A stretch of 59,325 nucleotides of DNA, taken from Candidatus Omnitrophota bacterium. Lineage in GTDB: Bacteria; Omnitrophota; Gorgyraeia; Duberdicusellales; 4484-171. The notes below the pieces were generated by a model, which ran no database searches, was not told where the DNA came from, and was given only the letters and a program-made list of their open reading frames with translations. Within the stretch, counting starts at the first letter, position 1. The number at the start of each line of letters is the position of its first letter. The position numbers and the translations under genes were made by a program. Where the stretch lies: contig JAMXCX010000003.1 of assembly GCA_024542985.1 (NCBI GenBank), forward strand, positions 1 to 59,325, read 5' to 3'. This document shows positions 2,625 to 59,325 of this stretch, one piece after another.

Positions 2625-4085
2625 ATGTCTAAATTTTTTGTTTTAATTTTATTTTCGTCCCTTATTTCTAATCCTGCTATTTGTGAAAATATCAAAGAAG
2701 CCGACCTTTCAGGAACTTGGTACCTAGCTGATTCTCGTAAACTATATAAGAAGATTAATAGCTACTTGCGAAGCGCTAAAGCGCAAAATATCGAAGGAGA
2801 GACAATAGCTATTATTTCTCCTCATGCGGGAATCATTTTTTCCGGCGAAGTGGCTGCTCATAGCTTCGAACCGCTCAGGGATAAAGGTATAAAAACTGTT
2901 GTTTTAGTGGGTTTTAGCCATAGAAAAGATTACGATGGCATAGCTGTTTTTGATAAAGATGGTATTAGAACCCCTTTGGGAGTACTCTATTCAGATAAAG
3001 TCTTGGTAAAAAAAATAACCTCAGCCCATAAGAAGATTTTCACTTATCTGCCGGCCTTTTCTCAGGAAAATTCCCTTGAGCTTATTCTACCCTTTATACA
3101 AGTCGCTTTAGGCAATCCAAAAGTTTTACTTTTGGCTATCGGCAGGCAGAGTTTGGAAAATTGCCGGATTTTGGGAGAAACCCTTTATCAAATATTAAAA
3201 AATAAAGATAATTTTCTTATAATTGCCAGTACGGATATGAGCCATTATCTGTCTGACTTTGAGGCAAGGAAGATAGATTCCAAGACTGCCGAAGCAATAA
3301 CCCAAATGCAACCAAAAGAATTGTTCTTACGGTGTTATGGGAAAAAGCGCATGTGTGGATTAGCAGCGGTTGTATCCACAATGATTGCTGCAAAGAAATT
3401 AGGGGCCAAAAAGGCTCAGATATTAAAAATGGACACTTCTGCTAAGGGCAGCGGAGATAAGGGAAGGGTTGTTGGTTACTTGAGCGCCGCTTTCATCCGC
3501 GAAAAACCAATAAAGGAAAAGGAGCGTGTTAAGATGAGAGAATTTCTTACGCCAAAGCAAAAAAAGGAACTCTTAAAGATAGCTCGGGATACGATTAATA
3601 GTTATGTAAAACAAAAGAAAGTTTTAGATGTAGAAACCAATGACCCTATCCTTAAGGAAATCATGGGTGTTTTTGTTACTTTGCGTAAAGACGGCCAGTT
3701 ACGGGGTTGTATCGGAAATATTATCGGCAGAGAACCGCTTTATCTTGGGGTGCGAAACATGGCTATTGCTGCTGCTGCCCAGGACCCGCGTTTTAGCCCG
3801 GTGAGGTTTCATGAACTTAAGGACATAGAAATTGAAGTTTCTGTACTTACTCCTTTAAGAGAAATTTTCGATCCCGATGAGATAATCTTAGGTACACACG
3901 GAGTTTTAGTGCGGGATGGGTTTAGAAGCGGGGTATACCTGCCTCAAGTGGCCACTGAAACCGGCTGGAGCAAGGAAGAATTTATGAATAGCCTTTGCGG
4001 CCAAAAAGCCCATATGGAAGTTGACGCCTGGAAAACAGGTAAGTGCGAAATACACGTCTTTACCGCCGAAGTATTTGGAGAGTAA
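2625..4085 (+). CDS. amrB: AmmeMemoRadiSam system protein B/A fusion (MEMO1 + AMMECR1 domains) with N-terminal signal-like peptide
   Basis: SGTWY, SPHAG, GFSH, STDMSHY and MCG (MEMO); GVFVTL, LRGCIG, DPRF and YLPQVA (AMMECR1). Confidence 0.9.
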   Translation: MSKFFVLILFSSLISNPAICENIKEADLSGTWYLADSRKLYKKINSYLRSAKAQNIEGETIAIISPHAGIIFSGEVAAHSFEPLRDKGIKTVVLVGFSHRKDYDGIAVFDKDGIRTPLGVLYSDKVLVKKITSAHKKIFTYLPAFSQENSLELILPFIQVALGNPKVLLLAIGRQSLENCRILGETLYQILKNKDNFLIIASTDMSHYLSDFEARKIDSKTAEAITQMQPKELFLRCYGKKRMCGLAAVVSTMIAAKKLGAKKAQILKMDTSAKGSGDKGRVVGYLSAAFIREKPIKEKERVKMREFLTPKQKKELLKIARDTINSYVKQKKVLDVETNDPILKEIMGVFVTLRKDGQLRGCIGNIIGREPLYLGVRNMAIAAAAQDPRFSPVRFHELKDIEIEVSVLTPLREIFDPDEIILGTHGVLVRDGFRSGVYLPQVATETGWSKEEFMNSLCGQKAHMEVDAWKTGKCEIHVFTAEVFGE

Positions 4086-49925: not shown

Positions 49926-51983
49926 ATGCAGGAAGTCACAGATTTTGTAAATAAGAGTGAAATAATAAAACAAATACCCCTATTTTCAGACTTAAACTGG
50001 ATTGAATCTTGGGTTATTCTGCCTAAATTAGCATTTTTTGAATACAAAAAAAATGAAATTATTTACACCGCAGGTGACCCGGGAGATGCATTCTATCTTT
50101 TGCTTTCAGGCCGCTTGCAAGTATCTAAGAAGCTTTCCGGCGGACAGGAAAAAACTCTGGATTATTTAACCCGCAATAAATATTTTGGAATAATTTCTCT
50201 TTTGTCCGGTGAATCTCATTCCGGAACGGTAAAGGTTATAAACGATTCTTTTATCTTAAGAATAAAAAAGGAAGATTTTAATAATATCTTGCAGAAAATT
50301 CCTAAGTTAGCAGTACATATGAGCAAGTCTCTTTCTAGGCGCTTAAGAAGAAGACGTCTTCATCCCGAAGATATTTTTGAAACTAAAATTATATCAGCAT
50401 TAAGTGTTGCAGCCCGAGTGGGAGTAAGCAGGTATCTGGCGAATTTATCAATATCTTTGAAAAAAGAGACAACCAAACAAGTAATACTTATAGAGATTAA
50501 TTCTGCGCCAAACAGCATTTTTAAAAATTTAGGCCTTAGTTCAGAGGTTTATTCTTTAAACCTCAACCATACTAATCTTAATAAAGCGCAACTAAAGGAA
50601 AATATAACTACTCATACTTGCGGTATTGATTTGTTATCTGTTAGTTATAATCTCAAGATGGAAAATGGACAAAACAGTATAGCTTATCTTTTAGGGATGT
50701 TGATGGAAGATTATAGTTATATAGTTATTGATCTTCCTAAAAGCCCGGAGCCAATAGTAAATGAAGTTCTTGGGCAATCTGATTTGATCCATATTGTAAC
50801 CGATGACCAAGAAGATAATTTGAAGGCAACGAGGATATTTATCGAGAAATTAAGAAATTCTGTTGAAGAAATAGAGGATAATATATTTATAGTCGTAAAT
50901 GAAGTGGAATCCAAAAGAGTGAGGCTTTCTAGCAAGCAAATAAGGAATATTCTGAATGACAGAGTCTATGTTAGCCTGCAGCATTTTACAGACCCGTTAA
51001 TTAAAAGGAGCGGCTTTATACAGGTATTAGAATGCCCTGACGCAAAGTATGCCCTGGCAGTAAGAAATGTGGCCCGAGAAATAGGAGAGGTATTAATAGG
51101 GCTGGCATTAAGCGGCGGAGCTTCTTTCGGTCTTGCCCACATAGGAGTGCTCAAGGTTTTAGAGAAGGAAAACATCAACATTGATGTTGTTGCCGGTACA
51201 AGTATGGGGGCATTTGTCGGAGGGCTTTGGGCTTCCGGAGTTTCAGTCGCAGGATTAGAAAAAATTGCTTTAGGTTTTAGGAATAAACTTAGAGTTCTCA
51301 GGCTTTTTGATTTTGTTTTTCCTAGGAGAGGTTTAATTTTAGGAAGGTATATATTAAAGCTGCTCAGGAAGCATTTGAAAGTTAAAACTTTTCAGGAGGT
51401 AAAAATTCCTTTTCTAACTGTTGCTTGCGATTTGGAAAGCCGGCAGGAGGTTATATTGGATGAAGGAGATTTAGCTAGAGCCATAAGGGCAAGTATATCT
51501 ATACCGGGAGTATTTATTCCTTTAGTTGATGAGGGAAGATTCTTAATGGACGGAGGGATCTTACAGCCATTACCTATCCAGCTTCTTATCCGCAAGGGGG
51601 TAAGCAAAATAATTGCCGTAGACGTCTTGCCTAGCCAGTTAGACATAAAAAAGGCCTATCAAAGATACAGAAAAACAGAAGATGAGAAATTAGAGATAAT
51701 AAAGAAATCAAATATTTTTAAGAAATTATTTTATTGGCTCGGGAAAAAAATCCACCGAATGTTTTTTCCTAATATTTTTGATGCCATTGTTATTGCCATG
51801 CAGGCTTCTGAAGCTATATTAGCCGAAGCAAGCCGTAAACAAGCAGACGTTTACCTGCATCCTGACCTCTCGGAAATCAGCTGGTTTGAATTTTATCGGG
51901 CAGAAGAGCTAATAAAATCCGGAGAAAAGGAAGCGCGTAGGCTCCTGCCCCAGATAAAACAAATATTGGCTAATAAAAATTAA
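49926..51983 (+). CDS. cNMP-binding / degenerate MinD-ParA-like / patatin phospholipase
   Basis: N-terminal CAP-type domain; central P-loop-like region; LSGG..G.AHIG, GTSMG and DGG motifs. Confidence 0.88.
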   Translation: MQEVTDFVNKSEIIKQIPLFSDLNWIESWVILPKLAFFEYKKNEIIYTAGDPGDAFYLLLSGRLQVSKKLSGGQEKTLDYLTRNKYFGIISLLSGESHSGTVKVINDSFILRIKKEDFNNILQKIPKLAVHMSKSLSRRLRRRRLHPEDIFETKIISALSVAARVGVSRYLANLSISLKKETTKQVILIEINSAPNSIFKNLGLSSEVYSLNLNHTNLNKAQLKENITTHTCGIDLLSVSYNLKMENGQNSIAYLLGMLMEDYSYIVIDLPKSPEPIVNEVLGQSDLIHIVTDDQEDNLKATRIFIEKLRNSVEEIEDNIFIVVNEVESKRVRLSSKQIRNILNDRVYVSLQHFTDPLIKRSGFIQVLECPDAKYALAVRNVAREIGEVLIGLALSGGASFGLAHIGVLKVLEKENINIDVVAGTSMGAFVGGLWASGVSVAGLEKIALGFRNKLRVLRLFDFVFPRRGLILGRYILKLLRKHLKVKTFQEVKIPFLTVACDLESRQEVILDEGDLARAIRASISIPGVFIPLVDEGRFLMDGGILQPLPIQLLIRKGVSKIIAVDVLPSQLDIKKAYQRYRKTEDEKLEIIKKSNIFKKLFYWLGKKIHRMFFPNIFDAIVIAMQASEAILAEASRKQADVYLHPDLSEISWFEFYRAEELIKSGEKEARRLLPQIKQILANKN

Positions 51984-53465: not shown

Positions 53466-53969
53466 ATGCAGGATGAATTTCGCTATAACCTCGTGTTGGC
53501 TCTATTGGTTATGTCCCTGGGAGGATTACTCTTGCATTTTAGAATACACCCTGTGTTTACCGGCGGGGATTTTAGATGGGTAAATCTAATACCGGTCGTT
53601 ATCGGGCTGGTAAATGTAATTATTATTCCTTTGCTTTTTTTAAATAAAAATACTGTCACTTGTGCCTATCTTTTAACCGGTTTATCTGTAATCTTGGGAA
53701 TTATAACCATGAGCCATTTATCCATTTTTAAACTGGGGAGAGAAATTACTTTTTTTAGTATTTTACTTAAAGCCACACTGGCTGATTCCTTGATACTTTT
53801 TGGTAAGTTCTTTATCGCAAAAGTTATATTTGATTCTTACTTTCCCCAAAAAGCTCAGTTTAATTATAAATTTCCCCAAACATTTAGATTTTTATTTCCC
53901 GGATGGTGGCTGGTTCATTTTATAGGGATTGCAATCGTATATTCGTTAGGTGTAAGTATTTTTTCATAG
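53466..53969 (+). CDS. Hypothetical multi-pass membrane protein with His residues in TM segments
   Basis: About five TMs; LLHFRIHP, MSH and WLVH; GGGGAGG RBS. Confidence 0.7.
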   Translation: MQDEFRYNLVLALLVMSLGGLLLHFRIHPVFTGGDFRWVNLIPVVIGLVNVIIIPLLFLNKNTVTCAYLLTGLSVILGIITMSHLSIFKLGREITFFSILLKATLADSLILFGKFFIAKVIFDSYFPQKAQFNYKFPQTFRFLFPGWWLVHFIGIAIVYSLGVSIFS

Positions 53970-54316: not shown

Positions 54317-55450
54317 ATGAAAATATATATTAAAATATTAAGTTGCTTCGCTGCATTCTTTATATTTTTTAACGCCGGAGTTTTATTCGCTAAAAGGGGG
54401 CCAAAAATTAGTATCGATACGAAATATTGGGATTTTGGCACAGTGAAGGAAGGGGAAATAAAAGAAAAGGGTTTTGTAGTGGTAAACATCGGTGATGAAG
54501 ATTTAATTATTCGTAAAGTATTTACCGATTGCGGCTGCACCAGGGCAAATATTTCCTCTAAGCGGATAGCTCCCAAGGGGAAAGCTGAGCTAAAAGTAGT
54601 TTACAGCACAAAAGGAAAATCTCTCGGTAAAGACACCAAAGATATTTATATCGTTTCCAATGACCTTTTGAATTCTAAGATAAAAATTACCATTACGGCA
54701 ATAATTACATCCCCTGATGAGCCAATTTCAAAGCGCAGGTCATCGAGCATTCCCACACTTACTTCCCAAGAGCTATTTGACAGGCTAGAGGCAGGAGAAG
54801 ATATTACTATTTTAGATGTGCGGGAAGAGAATGAATATATAGAGCGTCATATTCCTGAAGCAATTTGGTTTCCTAAAAGTAAGTTTGACCGCAACGATAA
54901 GGAAGTCCTAGCGAAATTAGAGAATTTGGATAAAGACAAGCTTATAGTTTCTTATTGCGGGGCCGGCCATAGAAGCAGTTTTGTAACCAAGAAGTTGCGG
55001 GAAAAAGGTTATAATGTTTATAATCTTGATGGAATTTCTTTTTGGGAGAAAAGGGGCTATCCTCTTATCCGTGGCCCAAAGCTTCCTTCCAGCCAAGAGC
55101 CGGCTATAGTTTATCTCCAAGAGGCTTATGAGCACTATTTTTTGTTATTTAGGGATATTGTTTGGATTGATGTTAGGAATAGAGACGATTATAATAAAGG
55201 GCATGTTAAAGGTGCCTTGGGAATTCCCCTTTCTGACTTAGAATACAATCTTAATAAAATTCCCAAAGATAAAGAAATTGTCTTTTACTGTGAAGGGACT
55301 TGGGATGGAGGCAAATGCGATGCTAGCATGAGTGCCGGGCGGATATTAATAAAAAACGGCTTTAAACCGGGAAAAATCAAGGTTTTTGAGGACGGCTATG
55401 GAGCCTGGGAAGATGCCGGTTATCCCGTAGAAAAAAGGAGAAGAAGATGA
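54317..55450 (+). CDS. Exported DUF1573 + double rhodanese domain protein
   Basis: Signal peptide; DFG..TDCGCT (DUF1573); two rhodanese domains (DVRE..HIP..YCGAGHRS and DVR..GHVKGA..YCEG). Confidence 0.85.
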   Translation: MKIYIKILSCFAAFFIFFNAGVLFAKRGPKISIDTKYWDFGTVKEGEIKEKGFVVVNIGDEDLIIRKVFTDCGCTRANISSKRIAPKGKAELKVVYSTKGKSLGKDTKDIYIVSNDLLNSKIKITITAIITSPDEPISKRRSSSIPTLTSQELFDRLEAGEDITILDVREENEYIERHIPEAIWFPKSKFDRNDKEVLAKLENLDKDKLIVSYCGAGHRSSFVTKKLREKGYNVYNLDGISFWEKRGYPLIRGPKLPSSQEPAIVYLQEAYEHYFLLFRDIVWIDVRNRDDYNKGHVKGALGIPLSDLEYNLNKIPKDKEIVFYCEGTWDGGKCDASMSAGRILIKNGFKPGKIKVFEDGYGAWEDAGYPVEKRRRR

Positions 55451-56136
55451 TTAGAAAAATAAAAATTACTATTTTTATGTTACTTATTGCATTTTTCAAT
55501 ATTACCGCTTTCGCCGGTACCAAGGAAGATATTTATTCTAAATTAAAATGCTGCAATTGCGGCAAGCCATTCACTCCTTGCGTTTGTGTGCACGCTAAAG
55601 AGATAAAAGGATATATAGATGCTCTTTTGGAAGTAGGATTAGGCAAGGAAGAGGTTTTTGTAAAGATAGCAAAAAAATACACCCTAGATACTATTATAGA
55701 TACTGCATTGAGAGAAACGGTTGAGAAAAAAATAATAACCGAAGCCGGTGAGAATCGGCCCCAGATTTTCATTAAGCCCTTATCGTATAATTTAGGAAAA
55801 ATTAGCAAAAGGCGAGGTAAATTAAAATTAAAAGTAAAGTTGCAAAATAAAGGTAAGGAAGTATTAAAAATAACAGATTTAAAAACAACCTGTGCCTGTA
55901 CTACAATTAAATTAAAAATAAAGAGATATGCGAGCCCTGCTTTTAGCACTGAAGGCGCAACGCCGGGATGGGAGGCAAGTATTAAGCCTGGAGGCAAAGG
56001 CACACTTATCATAGTTACTGATTTAAGCCACGCCCATGTTCATTTAGGGCAAATGCTAAGAACAGTTGAGATCAAAAGCAATGATCCTCTAAGGTCTTTA
56101 ATCAAGGTAGAATTTGAGGCCGAAATAGTTAAATAG
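55447..56136 (+). CDS. Exported CcmH-like Cys-motif + DUF1573 protein
   Basis: Signal peptide ending AFA; KLKCCNC...CVCVHA; TTCACT...SNDP. Confidence 0.7.
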   Translation: MIRKIKITIFMLLIAFFNITAFAGTKEDIYSKLKCCNCGKPFTPCVCVHAKEIKGYIDALLEVGLGKEEVFVKIAKKYTLDTIIDTALRETVEKKIITEAGENRPQIFIKPLSYNLGKISKRRGKLKLKVKLQNKGKEVLKITDLKTTCACTTIKLKIKRYASPAFSTEGATPGWEASIKPGGKGTLIIVTDLSHAHVHLGQMLRTVEIKSNDPLRSLIKVEFEAEIVK

Positions 56137-56257
56137 TCGTTTAATTTGATTTAATATTGATGAATTAAGTACGGAGTAAATACAGATAAAATGAAACACC
56201 CGCATAGGCCAAAACAAATCTCATCAGCGGATGATTTATTTGAATATCGTTCCTAAG

Positions 56258-57484
56258 ATGCGAAGAGCCAGGTTTAAGAAAATTTCCCGGAGAAAGTTTT
56301 GCAAAATATGCTTTTTAAGCGGAGCAAGTTTAGTCTTTTCCCCTTTGCTTATCGATTTGCTTAGAGAGTCTGCGCAGGCTGCCCGGCCAAAAGGCGGTAT
56401 GGGTTTCATCAATCCCCGAGAGGCCATGTTTTATAAAAAGTTGGATAAAAATACAATTCAATGCCAGCTTTGTCCCAGATACTGCACGCTTAAAAATGGG
56501 ATGAGAGGACTTTGCCGGGCCAGAGAGCCCCGGGACGGTAAACATTATAGCCTGGTATATGCAAATCCCACGGCAATTCATGTTGATCCCATTGAAAAAA
56601 AACCCCTTTTTCATTTCTTGCCTGCCACCGCTGCCTTTTCTATCGCTACGGCCGGCTGCAACTTTCGCTGCAAATATTGCCAGAATTGGGAGATTTCCCA
56701 ATTCAAGCCTGAGGAGACAGTAAATCATTATTTGCCGCCTGAAGAAGTAGTCAAGAAAGCAGTTCAATATAATTGCTTAACAATCGCGTATACTTATACT
56801 GAACCGTCTATATTTTATGAGTATATGCTGGATACAGCTAAGATTGCTAAAGCTAAAGGCGTAAAAAACATCTACCATTCAAACGGTTCACTTAATCCTG
56901 ATCCGGCTGCGAAACTTGCGGTTTATCTTGACGGGGCTAATATTGATTTAAAAGGATTCAGTCAGGATTTCTACAGTGAAGTTAGCCAAGGCCATTTAGA
57001 AACGGTTTTAAATACTCTCAAGACTCTCAAAAAAAATAAAGTTCATGTAGAAATTACTAATTTAATAGTCCCCCCTTTAAATGATGATATGGCTATGATT
57101 AAAAAGATGTGTATTTGGATTAGGGATGAGTTAGGAAAGGACGTTCCCCTGCACTTTTCCCGATTTCATCCCACCTATAAGTTGAAAAATCTCACTCCCA
57201 CTCCGGTAAAGACTTTAGAAGAGGCAAGAAATACTGCCCTAAGCCAAGGCCTGGAATACGTTTACATCGGAAATGTTCCCGGACACCAGGCCGAGAATAC
57301 TTATTGCCCTAAAGATAATAAAGTTGTGATTAAAAGAATAGGTTACAGAGTGCTCGAGAATAATATTGTAGACGGGAAATGCAAATTCTGTGGCACCCGG
57401 ATTCCCGGAGTCTGGAAAAAGGATCCCCTCCTCGACAAACAATCAAAATCATCCTCTAAAAAATTAAGCAAATATTTAGGATAA
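56258..57484 (+). CDS. amrS: AmmeMemoRadiSam system radical SAM enzyme with twin-arginine signal
   Basis: CQLCPRYC, VDPIEKKPLFHF, CNFRCKYCQNWEISQ, YTYTEP and YVYIGN motifs; N-terminal SRRKFCK...AQA. Confidence 0.93.
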   Translation: MRRARFKKISRRKFCKICFLSGASLVFSPLLIDLLRESAQAARPKGGMGFINPREAMFYKKLDKNTIQCQLCPRYCTLKNGMRGLCRAREPRDGKHYSLVYANPTAIHVDPIEKKPLFHFLPATAAFSIATAGCNFRCKYCQNWEISQFKPEETVNHYLPPEEVVKKAVQYNCLTIAYTYTEPSIFYEYMLDTAKIAKAKGVKNIYHSNGSLNPDPAAKLAVYLDGANIDLKGFSQDFYSEVSQGHLETVLNTLKTLKKNKVHVEITNLIVPPLNDDMAMIKKMCIWIRDELGKDVPLHFSRFHPTYKLKNLTPTPVKTLEEARNTALSQGLEYVYIGNVPGHQAENTYCPKDNKVVIKRIGYRVLENNIVDGKCKFCGTRIPGVWKKDPLLDKQSKSSSKKLSKYLG

Positions 57485-59325
57485 TGAAAAAGCGTATTAT
57501 TTTTGCTCTTGGGCTGGTTGGCTTTACTTCTATGGCTTCCCAGATAGTTTTAATGCGGGAGCTTTTAGTAATTTTTTACGGCAATGAGCTTTCTCTGGGA
57601 ATTACCTTATTTTGTTGGTTATTCGGCATAGCTTTGGGAAGTTGGGTTTTAGGTAAATGGCTTATAAGTAGATTTAAGTCCCAAATAGCTGTTTTTTGTT
57701 TGGGGCAGATAGTTCTGGTTTTTATTTTGTTTCTAAGTGTTCTGGGGGTAAGATTCATACCCAGTCTGTTTAAGTTTTCACCGGGTGAGATTATCGGAAT
57801 CCTACCTATAAGTATAGCTACCTTTGTATTGCTTTTTCCGGTTTGTATTTTGGTCGGATGTCTTTTTGTCGTAGGTTGCGAAATCCATAAAGGCAGCTTA
57901 AAGGGCGCGGTAAAAATAGGCCAAGTATATATCCTGGAGGCCATAGGGGCAGCTATCGGAGGCCTGATAACCAGCCTATTTTTAATTCGGATATTGAGCC
58001 CTCTCTATATAATAAGTTTATTAGGATTATTAAATTTATTCTCAGCATTTTTACTTTTATGGAAAAAAAGAATATGGGCTTTATGCGTAGGCCTGCTGAG
58101 CTTGGGATTTATTTTCATCATATTTTCAGGCAAGATAAATATTCTCCGTGATATCTCTTTGCGTGAACAGTGGAGGGGTTATGAGCTTCTTACGTCTTTT
58201 AATTCAATCTATGGAAATATCGCAGTAACGAAAAGAGAAAATCTCTATAGTGTATTTGTTAACGGCCTTTATGATTTCAGTGTTCCCGATGAGCGAACTT
58301 CCGAAATGAGCGTTCATTTTCCTCTCCTGGAACATCCCAACCCTAAGGATATTTTGTTTATAGGCGGAGGTTTAAGCGGCCGCCTTAAAGAAGCCCTAAA
58401 ACATCCGGTAAATAGAGTTGATTATGTAGAGCTTGATCCGGAATTAGTTAAGGTAACAAAAAAGTATTTACCGCTAAATGAAGCTTTGAACGATAAAAGA
58501 GTCAGGGTGATAACTAATATGGACGGAAGGCTGTTTATTAAAAGAACTAAGCAAGCCTACGATGTAGTAATTATAAATTTGCCCGAGCCTTATACTGCCC
58601 AGCTCAATAGATTTTATACTGAGGAGTTTTACAAAGAAGTAGAGCGAGTGCTGAAAGATAAGGGAATTTTGTCCTTTTCTCTAACATCTAACCCGAATTA
58701 TATTAGCCAGGAGCAGGCTCAATTATATATGACCTTAAAAAATACGCTGAGCAGCGTTTTTGCTGACGTAATAATTACCCCGGGTGAAACGAATTACTTT
58801 CTAGCTTCAAAGCAAAAAAATCTCCTTAGCTTAGACTGGCGTATTCTAATTGATAGATTGAATAAAAGAAGTATAAAAGCCAAATATATGAGGGAGTATT
58901 ATCTTTATAGTGAGTTATCTCAAGAACGAATAGATTTCTTTGAGGATAGATTAAAGCAATCACGATTTGCAGCCATAAATAGAGATTTTCAACCTATTGC
59001 CTATTACTACGATATGGTTCTCTGGAGCAGTTTTTTTAAGTATAGCTTAAAGAAGGTATTCAAAACTGTAAGCCCCGGAAAAATCTATATTGTTTCGGTA
59101 TTACTTTTTATATTCCTGTTTATTCCCGTAGGGTTTAGAAAAATAAGAAGAAAATTTCCTAATTGGCCGGTTTTGCTGTGCGTAACTACTACCGGATTTG
59201 CTGAGATAGCTTTTCAGATAATTACCTTGCTGGCATTCCAGGTGCTTTATGGATATGTATATTATAAATTAGGAATTATTTTAACTTCCTTTATGATCGG
59301 GCTGATTTTTGGAGGGTTTTGGATT
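57484..59325 (+). CDS. Membrane-bound spermidine synthase-like / SAM-binding protein (fused MFS/SpeE type), partial; absent from ORF track
   Basis: TAATG overlap with the amrS stop; MKKRIIFALGLVGFTSMASQIVLMRELLVIFYGNELS, multi-TM, then SIYGNI, ILFIGGGLSG, YVELDP, DGR and YDVVIINLPEP; frame open to the window end at the points checked. Confidence 0.9.
   Translation, partial: MKKRIIFALGLVGFTSMASQIVLMRELLVIFYGNELSLGITLFCWLFGIALGSWVLGKWLISRFKSQIAVFCLGQIVLVFILFLSVLGVRFIPSLFKFSPGEIIGILPISIATFVLLFPVCILVGCLFVVGCEIHKGSLKGAVKIGQVYILEAIGAAIGGLITSLFLIRILSPLYIISLLGLLNLFSAFLLLWKKRIWALCVGLLSLGFIFIIFSGKINILRDISLREQWRGYELLTSFNSIYGNIAVTKRENLYSVFVNGLYDFSVPDERTSEMSVHFPLLEHPNPKDILFIGGGLSGRLKEALKHPVNRVDYVELDPELVKVTKKYLPLNEALNDKRVRVITNMDGRLFIKRTKQAYDVVIINLPEPYTAQLNRFYTEEFYKEVERVLKDKGILSFSLTSNPNYISQEQAQLYMTLKNTLSSVFADVIITPGETNYFLASKQKNLLSLDWRILIDRLNKRSIKAKYMREYYLYSELSQERIDFFEDRLKQSRFAAINRDFQPIAYYYDMVLWSSFFKYSLKKVFKTVSPGKIYIVSVLLFIFLFIPVGFRKIRRKFPNWPVLLCVTTTGFAEIAFQIITLLAFQVLYGYVYYKLGIILTSFMIGLIFGGFWI

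Follow-up and report, generated by a model that had tools for sequence, protein, structure and literature searches.

A candidate exported paralog of the AmmeMemoRadiSam system encoded on an Omnitrophota contig

The functionally uncharacterized AmmeMemoRadiSam system comprises a radical S-adenosylmethionine (SAM) enzyme (AmrS, TIGR04337), a Memo-like protein (AmrB, TIGR04336), and an AMMECR1-like protein (AmrA, TIGR04335). Memo and AMMECR1, which likewise await a biochemical assignment, are conserved as far as humans. Radical SAM enzymes are generally regarded as cytoplasmic; they depend on SAM, a low-potential electron, and oxygen-sensitive clusters. The window analyzed here is a stretch of 59,325 nucleotides from a Candidatus Omnitrophota bacterium (JAMXCX010000003.1). 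It is the complete contig C49 of the source genome (G000), a metagenome-assembled genome (MAG) of 1.57 Mb that is 88% complete, and the best protein matches of the window proteins are named Omnitrophota. With an estimated probability of about 55%, the AmmeMemoRadiSam system has an exported paralog of which two components are encoded at the end of this contig, namely an AmrS with a signal of the twin-arginine translocation (Tat) type and a polytopic SpeE-like membrane protein. Such an exported system would be a variant of a known, uncharacterized one; a search of the literature returned no paper that describes it, and the evidence for it is computational.

AmrS and the SpeE-like protein are encoded by the last two of four genes that lie on the + strand at the contig end (54317-59325), a layout that the initial annotation had described and that is borne out by the sequence and by domain matches. 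The longest open reading frame (ORF) of AmrS spans 56231-57484 (+, 417 aa), and its stop codon overlaps the start of the SpeE-like gene (57484-59325, +) in a TAATG, so that the coupling of the two genes can be read directly from the sequence, as it had been before. A fusion of AmrB and AmrA is encoded 52 kb upstream on the same contig (2625-4085, +). The window proteins exceed the cut-offs of all three AmmeMemoRadiSam families and keep the CX3CX2C motif and the other cysteine motifs of the canonical system. They differ from it in that AmrS carries an N-terminal extension of about 55 residues, that AmrB and AmrA are fused and signal-bearing, and that the SpeE-like protein, a family with 14 transmembrane (TM) helices, is added and translationally coupled.

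The family membership of the window AmrS is clear from its match to TIGR04337, which reaches 376.9 bits against a cut-off of 220, covers model positions 2-337 of 349, and starts at residue 66. Radical_SAM is matched with 75 bits. The radical SAM motif CNFRCKYC occupies residues 143-150 (56657-56680), and an alignment of 40 homologs (58-91% identity) shows no exchange of its cysteines C143, C147, and C150, which agrees with the earlier observation that CxxxCxxC is kept. C78, C81, C85, C95, C359, and C387 are invariant in the same alignment. The nearest characterized radical SAM relatives are the PflA-type activases (TIGR02493/02494/02495), which give weak matches (E 1e-10 to 1e-15) with scores far below the cut-offs. 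Canonical AmrS proteins from Omnitrophota score about 600 bits with TIGR04337, compared to 377 bits for the window protein, and 29 of the 30 that served as controls are devoid of an N-terminal extension. In a FastTree phylogeny of AmrS with 132 rows (one fragment was left out), the canonical proteins form a clade with a support of 100 that is separate from the window protein. The signal-bearing proteins all fall into a group of 100 rows (support 92), in which the window AmrS is the sister of the protein from the closest locus for which DNA is available (L038, support 97).

The source genome encodes a second AmrS of 337 aa on contig C19, which lacks the extension, begins exactly at the core start of the window AmrS, and is placed in another clade of the tree, and a second AmrB of 267 aa on contig C95, likewise without an extension. 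Because these signal-less proteins are present in the same genome, the window copy is considered an extra copy of the AmmeMemoRadiSam system that is, by its N-terminal sequences, differently located. Another Omnitrophota locus holds a signal-less AmrS (L044:8678-9740) directly upstream of a Tat-type AmrS, and this second protein groups with the C19 paralog (support 100).

The N-terminal signal of AmrS is of the Tat type. SRRKFCK (residues 19-25, 56285-56305) is followed by 16 uncharged residues (26-41, 56306-56353) that form the hydrophobic region (h-region) and by AQA (48-50, 56372-56380), all located before the core. The twin-arginine (RR) consensus S/T-R-R-x-F-L-K is matched with a cysteine in place of the leucine. 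The motif is not situated at the very start of the ORF; close homologs begin at the position of M10 (56258), which is therefore listed as the likelier start of a protein of 408 aa with a signal peptide at 56258-56380. None of the 40 aligned homologs deviates at R20 or R21, and at least 90% of them retain F23 and K25. Among the 120 best homologs, 94 have RRx followed by a hydrophobic residue, nine an RK/KR-type variant, and one another sequence; in the remaining 16, the gene was called from a start within or downstream of the signal. The Tat-type signal that had been proposed from the letters alone is thus conserved among the close homologs, and, judged by this conservation, it is more than a product of chance.

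Translation could in principle start downstream of the signal at M57 (MGFINP), in which case the upstream frame would not be translated and the enzyme would have no signal. Three of the 120 homologs are indeed called from the equivalent MGF start, and no clear Shine-Dalgarno sequence is visible by eye before either of the two upstream ATG codons. The upstream frame is open, however, and is conserved as protein down to about 50% identity. Over the 48 codons before the core, the comparison with L038 gives proportions of nonsynonymous and synonymous differences (pN and pS) of 0.38 and 0.99, respectively, a measure that is used for the signal only, since the figure for the core is invalid (the ungapped alignment slipped, 17% identity). 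As pN is far below pS, the upstream frame is under constraint at the protein level, which renders a start at M57 very improbable.

A Tat-type signal calls for a Tat translocase, and the presence of tat genes had been named by the initial annotation as a point to be checked. Contig C53 carries tatA (70.5 bits) and a tatC (31.1 bits) that is cut by the contig end. At the closest locus, tatC is located directly upstream of the AmrS and SpeE-like genes; this linkage is not general, as tatC lies within 10 kb of AmrS in just 4 of 100 loci. A rule-based scan of the source genome for Tat signals yields 10 candidates, of which, by reading, only AmrS and the molybdoenzyme of contig C53 look canonical. 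The complete, Tat-dependent operon on C53 (L157:1-7900, minus strand) encodes an NrfD-like protein, a 4Fe-4S subunit, a molybdopterin oxidoreductase of 861 aa, a NarJ/TorD-like chaperone, TatA, and the cut TatC, and both the 4Fe-4S subunit and the oxidoreductase have Tat-type signals. With Tat-exported iron-sulfur (Fe-S) and molybdenum enzymes, of which this Psr/Phs-type operon is an example, AmrS shares the motif S/T-R-R-x-F-x-K, a moderately hydrophobic h-region, an AxA site, and the need for its clusters before export. One difference is that a radical SAM enzyme, once delivered, must also be supplied with SAM and with a low-potential electron. No radical SAM enzyme was found in the literature among the known Tat substrates or as an exported protein.

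The SpeE-like protein takes up the very end of the contig. Its fragment in the window consists of seven hydrophobic helices followed by a Spermine_synth domain (106 bits), and the contig end cuts the gene after about TM10. Full-length relatives comprise 700-870 aa with 14 TM helices, a consensus drawn from 32 full-length homologs (BLAST matches that cover query residues 15-600 and are at least 690 aa long; partial matches were dropped). The family is large: at E<=1e-30, it comprises 3,234 sequences that each represent a cluster at 50% identity. TM1-6 match TM9-14 over 184 collinear columns (hhalign probability 99.1%, E 1e-18), and from this homology follows an architecture of six TM helices, TM7, the soluble SpeE-fold domain (residues 222-532, 58147-59079), TM8, and another six TM helices. 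The internal repeat of 6+6 helices also implies that TM7 and TM8 cannot differ in whether they cross the membrane. They are the most hydrophobic segments of the protein, with values of 2.46 and 2.62, respectively.

The distribution of lysine and arginine (K+R) over the loops is strongly biased. The even loops 0, 2, 4, 6, 8, 10, and 12 contain on average 1.6, 3.0, 1.8, 0.8, 3.0, 3.4, and 2.7 of these residues, while the odd loops 1, 3, 5, 9, 11, and 13 contain 0.06, 1.0, 0.06, 0, 0.25, and 0. Per sequence, this amounts to 8-23 in the even and 0-2 in the odd loops, in 33 of 33 SpeE-like proteins. Since the soluble domain constitutes loop 7, the positive-inside rule predicts that it faces outward, and the topology of the SpeE-like domain, which had been named as a point to be checked, is thereby predicted on the basis of the whole family. 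The AlphaFold2 model of the L038 ortholog has a mean predicted local distance difference test (pLDDT) value of 88 and a predicted TM-score (pTM) of 0.89.

The soluble domain resembles spermidine synthases (PF01564, TIGR00417; 1INL, 1UIR, 3O4F, 7XIF) and the NF037959 family of "fused MFS/spermidine synthase" proteins in its fold, its Rossmann motif, the ribose-binding glutamate (VELDP), and the DG(R) site. Foldseek gives TM-scores (target) of 0.73-0.78 to SpeE structures, which were also the only structures returned by the whole-chain search, and sequence matches to SpeE proteins of the PDB reach E values of 1e-23 to 1e-15. The equivalog cut-offs are all missed (TIGR00417, 106 versus 249.55 bits; PRK00811, 127.5 versus 260 bits; PRK03612, 147 versus 472 bits), and the position between two six-TM repeats with a predicted outward orientation is a further difference to the described proteins. 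NF037959 scores 44.8 bits (cut-off 40), over the SpeE part only. Neither TM half matches any Pfam family at E<=1. Membership of the TM part in the major facilitator superfamily (MFS), whose build of two homologous six-TM halves it shares, was considered and set aside, as it has no Pfam match and Foldseek returned SpeE only; the TM fold is left unnamed. In nearby Atlas clusters, 16-24% of the members have an MFS_1 domain, which is a lead only, and the literature search found nothing relevant on fused MFS/spermidine synthases.

The differences to spermidine synthases extend to the active site. The aspartate of the GGGDGG motif, which selects decarboxylated SAM (dcSAM) in spermidine synthases, is replaced by a hydrophobic residue. 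The window protein reads GGGLSG at this position, GGG-hydrophobic-x-G (GGG[LVIAM..]xG) is found in 33 of 33 family members, and an acidic residue in none of the 33. The D-S-T-D-P motif is represented by NLPEP in the window (consensus NLPDP), and its first catalytic aspartate is kept in 2 of 33 members and is mostly an asparagine. The ribose-binding E316 of VELDP, on the other hand, is invariant, and D347 of the DG(R) adenine site is kept in at least 90% of the 33 proteins. Because the dcSAM gatekeeper and the first catalytic aspartate are lost and the ribose and adenine sites are kept, the domain is more likely a SAM- or adenosyl-binding module than an aminopropyltransferase. That the membrane protein handles SAM, as the initial annotation had suggested, is what we infer from these residues.

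An interaction of the two coupled gene products is supported by a model of the complex between mature AmrS (residues 56-417) and the soluble domain (222-532), in which each protein was given its own alignment. The interface score ipSAE is 0.80 (0.80, 0.83, and 0.79 in the individual runs) against 0.01 for the best of three controls. Of 80 solved complexes, 58 attain the ipSAE mark, as do 2 of 110 mismatched pairs, a calibration that is roughly valid here, own alignments having been used. The runs share at least 79% of their contacts, and the pLDDT of the partner is at least 84. On the side of AmrS, the interface is formed by the TAIHVDPIEK loop, which is invariant, by residues 151-155, which follow the cluster motif immediately, and by 313-328 and 370-373; the partner contributes residues 249-272, E368 of NLPEP, 400-411, and 467-492. 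As residues 151-155 of AmrS and E368 of the partner both take part, the would-be active sites face each other in the model. Docking on a protein partner by the cluster face is also a property of the PflA-type activases, with the difference that no glycyl-radical enzyme partner is present here.

The AmrB-AmrA fusion at 2625-4085 is the probable third component of the system. It matches TIGR04336 with 231 bits and TIGR04335 with 171 bits, and its signal-like N-terminus (about 2625-2684), already pointed out in the initial annotation, is a common property of such fusions: among the 35 that are encoded near related AmrS genes and whose N-terminus falls within the locus, 34 begin with a signal-like hydrophobic stretch, nine of them with a lipobox-like cysteine.

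The recurrence of these genes was followed in 100 AmrS loci, 80 from species-representative genomes of many phyla and 20 from Omnitrophota. The phyla of the 80 related loci include Omnitrophota, Thermodesulfobacteriota, Zixiibacteriota, Ignavibacteriota, Aminicenantes, Thermodesulfovibrionales, Planctomycetota, and Poribacteria, along with two archaeal MAGs. By BLAST, a SpeE-like gene is present in 41 of these 80 loci, an AmrB-AmrA fusion in 30, either in 53, and both in 18; for the 34 loci with at least 5 kb on both sides, the counts are 20 (SpeE-like), 16 (AmrB-AmrA), and 25 (either). Of the 20 Omnitrophota loci, 10 have a SpeE-like gene and seven a fusion, with either in 16 loci and both in one. 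When every ORF up to 6 kb from AmrS is clustered without prior selection, the resulting order ranks the SpeE-like protein (52/100 loci) and the AmrB-AmrA fusion (37/100) before a DsbD_2-family membrane protein (23/100, always on the AmrS strand), a response regulator (18/100), a NosR/NapH-like protein with FMN_bind and Fer4_5 domains (11/100), DUF362 (5/100), and TatC (4/100). The SpeE-like gene and the signal-bearing AmrB-AmrA fusion are thus recurrent neighbors of this AmrS clade across phyla, and for these genes the co-occurrence on which the initial annotation had made its proposal depend is found.

Several of the less frequent neighbors carry redox domains. The DsbD_2-family protein (PF13386; L121:8266-8934 and 22 further loci) has a CxxC in its first helix, is encoded directly after AmrS or after AmrB-AmrA, and is found only with AmrS proteins of a clade with a short or a non-RR hydrophobic N-terminus. 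The FMN_bind and Fer4_5 protein is encoded just upstream of AmrS in its 11 loci (L117:8440-9768, L116, L111, L110, L061, L074, and others), four of which have a signal-less AmrS. The DUF362 gene also lies just upstream of AmrS in its five loci. A search of the source genome with the DsbD_2 protein of L121 as query gave no match.

From these components, a sequence of steps can be proposed. AmrS would be synthesized with its Tat signal and receive its Fe-S clusters in the cytoplasm, and TatAC would export the folded protein. Outside, the face next to the CX3CX2C cluster would dock on the outward SpeE-fold domain of the partner, which is built from six TM helices, TM7, the soluble domain, TM8, and six further TM helices, and which keeps the ribose- and adenine-binding acidic residues and has lost the dcSAM aspartate and the first catalytic aspartate. 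The mechanism preferred here is the weakest step: either SAM or the substrate would pass through the membrane by way of the duplicated six-TM part and would then be held for AmrS by the outer domain. The Memo-AMMECR1 fusion encoded at 2625, with its signal for the general secretory (Sec) pathway, would act on the same substrate. Taken as a whole, a route in which a transporter-like protein with a duplicated 6-TM part exports SAM or substrate, the outer domain holds it, and Tat-exported AmrS together with Memo-AMMECR1 modifies an envelope molecule is a tentative proposal that is possible rather than expected.

The clade extends over many anaerobic phyla and combines conserved export signals on AmrS and on Memo-AMMECR1 with a dedicated membrane protein that is a predicted binder. 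If the exported system is real, then either SAM and reductant reach the cell envelope or the rules of location prediction fail for this AmrS family. No radical SAM system outside the cytoplasm would precede it, and it would provide a handle on the function of Memo and AMMECR1, for which concrete, testable partners are now at hand.

A number of observations weigh against an exported system. Outside the cytoplasm, no pool of SAM or of low-potential reductant is known. Of the redox genes seen in related loci, DUF362 was not found in the source genome (88% complete), and the DsbD-type genes of this genome are located on other contigs and not next to the AmrS locus. Neither TIGR01409 nor PF10518 matches the AmrS N-terminus at E<=10, and PF10518 matches only 1 of 40 AmrS family members (E 0.044), although this test with hidden Markov models (HMMs) is weak, as the Tat molybdoenzyme of the source genome itself reaches just 15.2 bits and stays below the cut-off. 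The SpeE-like gene of the window is incomplete, and TM7 and TM8 have the lowest pLDDT of the AlphaFold2 model (blocks of 59-75). The N-termini of AmrS, moreover, are not uniform. They were classified by rules on the RR motif and the h-region, which replaced an earlier classifier that was too strict on h-region hydrophobicity. The 81 ORFs of the 80 related loci comprise 42 with RR, 11 with an RR variant, 15 with a hydrophobic N-terminus without RR, 13 without an extension, and no fragment; among these 13, RR is present in two, followed by a weak h-region, and another one belongs to a locus that has two AmrS paralogs. The corresponding numbers for the 20 Omnitrophota loci are 4, 3, 11, 1, and 1 fragment. 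Altogether, the 101 related AmrS ORFs include 26 whose N-terminus is hydrophobic and lacks RR and 14 that have no extension. The former would suit the Sec pathway, which cannot carry a folded Fe-S enzyme. The latter include proteins (L060, L077, L090, L095) that are encoded between the same SpeE-like gene, with the same K/R bias, and an AmrB-AmrA fusion. On the Thermodesulfovibrionales chromosome of L090 (7786-12759), the order is SpeE-like gene, signal-less AmrS of 324 aa, and AmrB-AmrA with a lipoprotein-type signal, which is at odds with a system that is located outside only. Neither the Sec-type signals on an Fe-S enzyme nor the signal-less AmrS near exported partners are accounted for, and chiefly for this reason two other placements of the system have to be weighed.

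In the first, the system is tethered to the membrane and faces the cytoplasm. The N-terminal segment would be either an anchor that is not cleaved off or the vestige of a Tat motif, of which NarG is an example, TM7 and TM8 would not both cross the membrane, and AmrS would act inside, where SAM and reductant are at hand. The diverse N-termini, the signal-less AmrS in the same type of cluster, the missing Tat HMM matches, and the lower pLDDT at TM7 and TM8 would all be accounted for, and the h-region of one AmrS subclade is conserved in sequence (..ACFY..), as would be typical of an anchor. Against this placement speak the invariant RR in the subfamily of the window AmrS, the tatC that adjoins AmrS at the closest locus, and the signal-like or lipobox-like N-termini of the AmrB-AmrA partners. 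The hydrophobicity of TM7 and TM8, unsurpassed in the protein, and the K/R bias, which is consistent on both sides of the domain, also argue that both helices cross. A cytoplasm-facing system is therefore regarded as unlikely.

In the second, the system spans the membrane. The substrate would be embedded in it, whether as a lipid, as a carrier, or in the form of the 14-TM protein, and would be reachable from both faces, so that AmrS could act outside in lineages with Tat-type proteins, such as that of the window, and inside in those with signal-less proteins, with AmrB-AmrA always outside. This would fit the mixture of N-terminal classes within one clade, which change 27 times on the AmrS tree, with the signal-less proteins in two nested clades of seven and four. 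It would also fit the presence of signal-less AmrS beside a lipoprotein AmrB-AmrA fusion and the electron-conduit neighbors that differ by class (DsbD_2 in 23 loci; FMN_bind and Fer4_5 in 11 loci, four of them signal-less). The surface on which AmrS is predicted to bind, however, belongs to the soluble domain and is found on one side only, and the substrate is unknown; a membrane-spanning system is considered unlikely. The exported AmmeMemoRadiSam paralog thus stays the preferred reading of the contig end.

The first two genes of the contig end had been included in the pathway by the initial annotation, in which the periplasm-facing system consisted of five proteins and the rhodanese and cysteine-rich proteins supplied sulfur or redox support to AmrS. 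The first gene (54317-55450, +) encodes a protein of 377 aa with a hydrophobic N-terminus, a DUF1573 domain (70 bits), and two rhodanese domains (PF00581, 114.7 bits in two stretches) that both have the active-site cysteine in their loops (CGAGHR and CEGTWD). It is joined by an ATGA overlap to the second gene (55447-56136, +), which encodes a cysteine-rich protein of 229 aa, also with a hydrophobic N-terminus, with the motif CCNCG...CVCVH placed before DUF1573 (40 bits). The label "CcmH-like" for this second protein has no family support: residues 1-118 match no Pfam family even at E<=10, and DUF1573 in the C-terminal half is the only domain.

A role of the pair in the AmrS pathway would be consistent with its position on the same strand, with a gap of 95 nt to AmrS in which no terminator-like site was found on the + strand, and with the signal-like N-termini of all proteins involved. 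Envelope redox genes are common in related loci, so that a redox helper is plausible in principle. The distribution of the genes speaks against it. Among 120 other genomes of the class, seven were found to encode a full-length relative of the rhodanese protein; the 229-aa gene adjoins in three of the seven (G145, G234, and G212), and none of these seven loci holds an AmrS or a SpeE-like gene. Conversely, the rhodanese and 229-aa proteins are found in 0 of 100 AmrS loci, with one weak rhodanese-only match. The linkage is not conserved, and a cotranscription with AmrS in this genome is possible. The two genes thus appear to be a separate envelope thiol module that merely adjoins AmrS, and a five-protein pathway is improbable. 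From the periplasm-facing pathway of the initial annotation, the exported AmrS, the outward SpeE-like domain, and the signal-bearing AmrB-AmrA are retained as predicted components, and the rhodanese and cysteine-rich partners are dropped.

The pair itself is conserved in three other Omnitrophota genomes (L150, L151, L152), and both of its DUF1573 domains have a CxC. Both proteins give sub-threshold matches to NCBIfam "(seleno)protein" families (OS_HP2, rhodanese-related, TsoB), and the pair has the appearance of an independent thiol/sulfur module of the envelope. Between a GltS-like transporter gene and the rhodanese gene, the window encodes a polytopic protein of 167 aa (53466-53969) that matches no Pfam or NCBIfam family. 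Further upstream, an ORF of 685 aa (49926-51983) appears, by eye, to be a fusion of a cyclic-nucleotide-binding domain and a patatin-like phospholipase.

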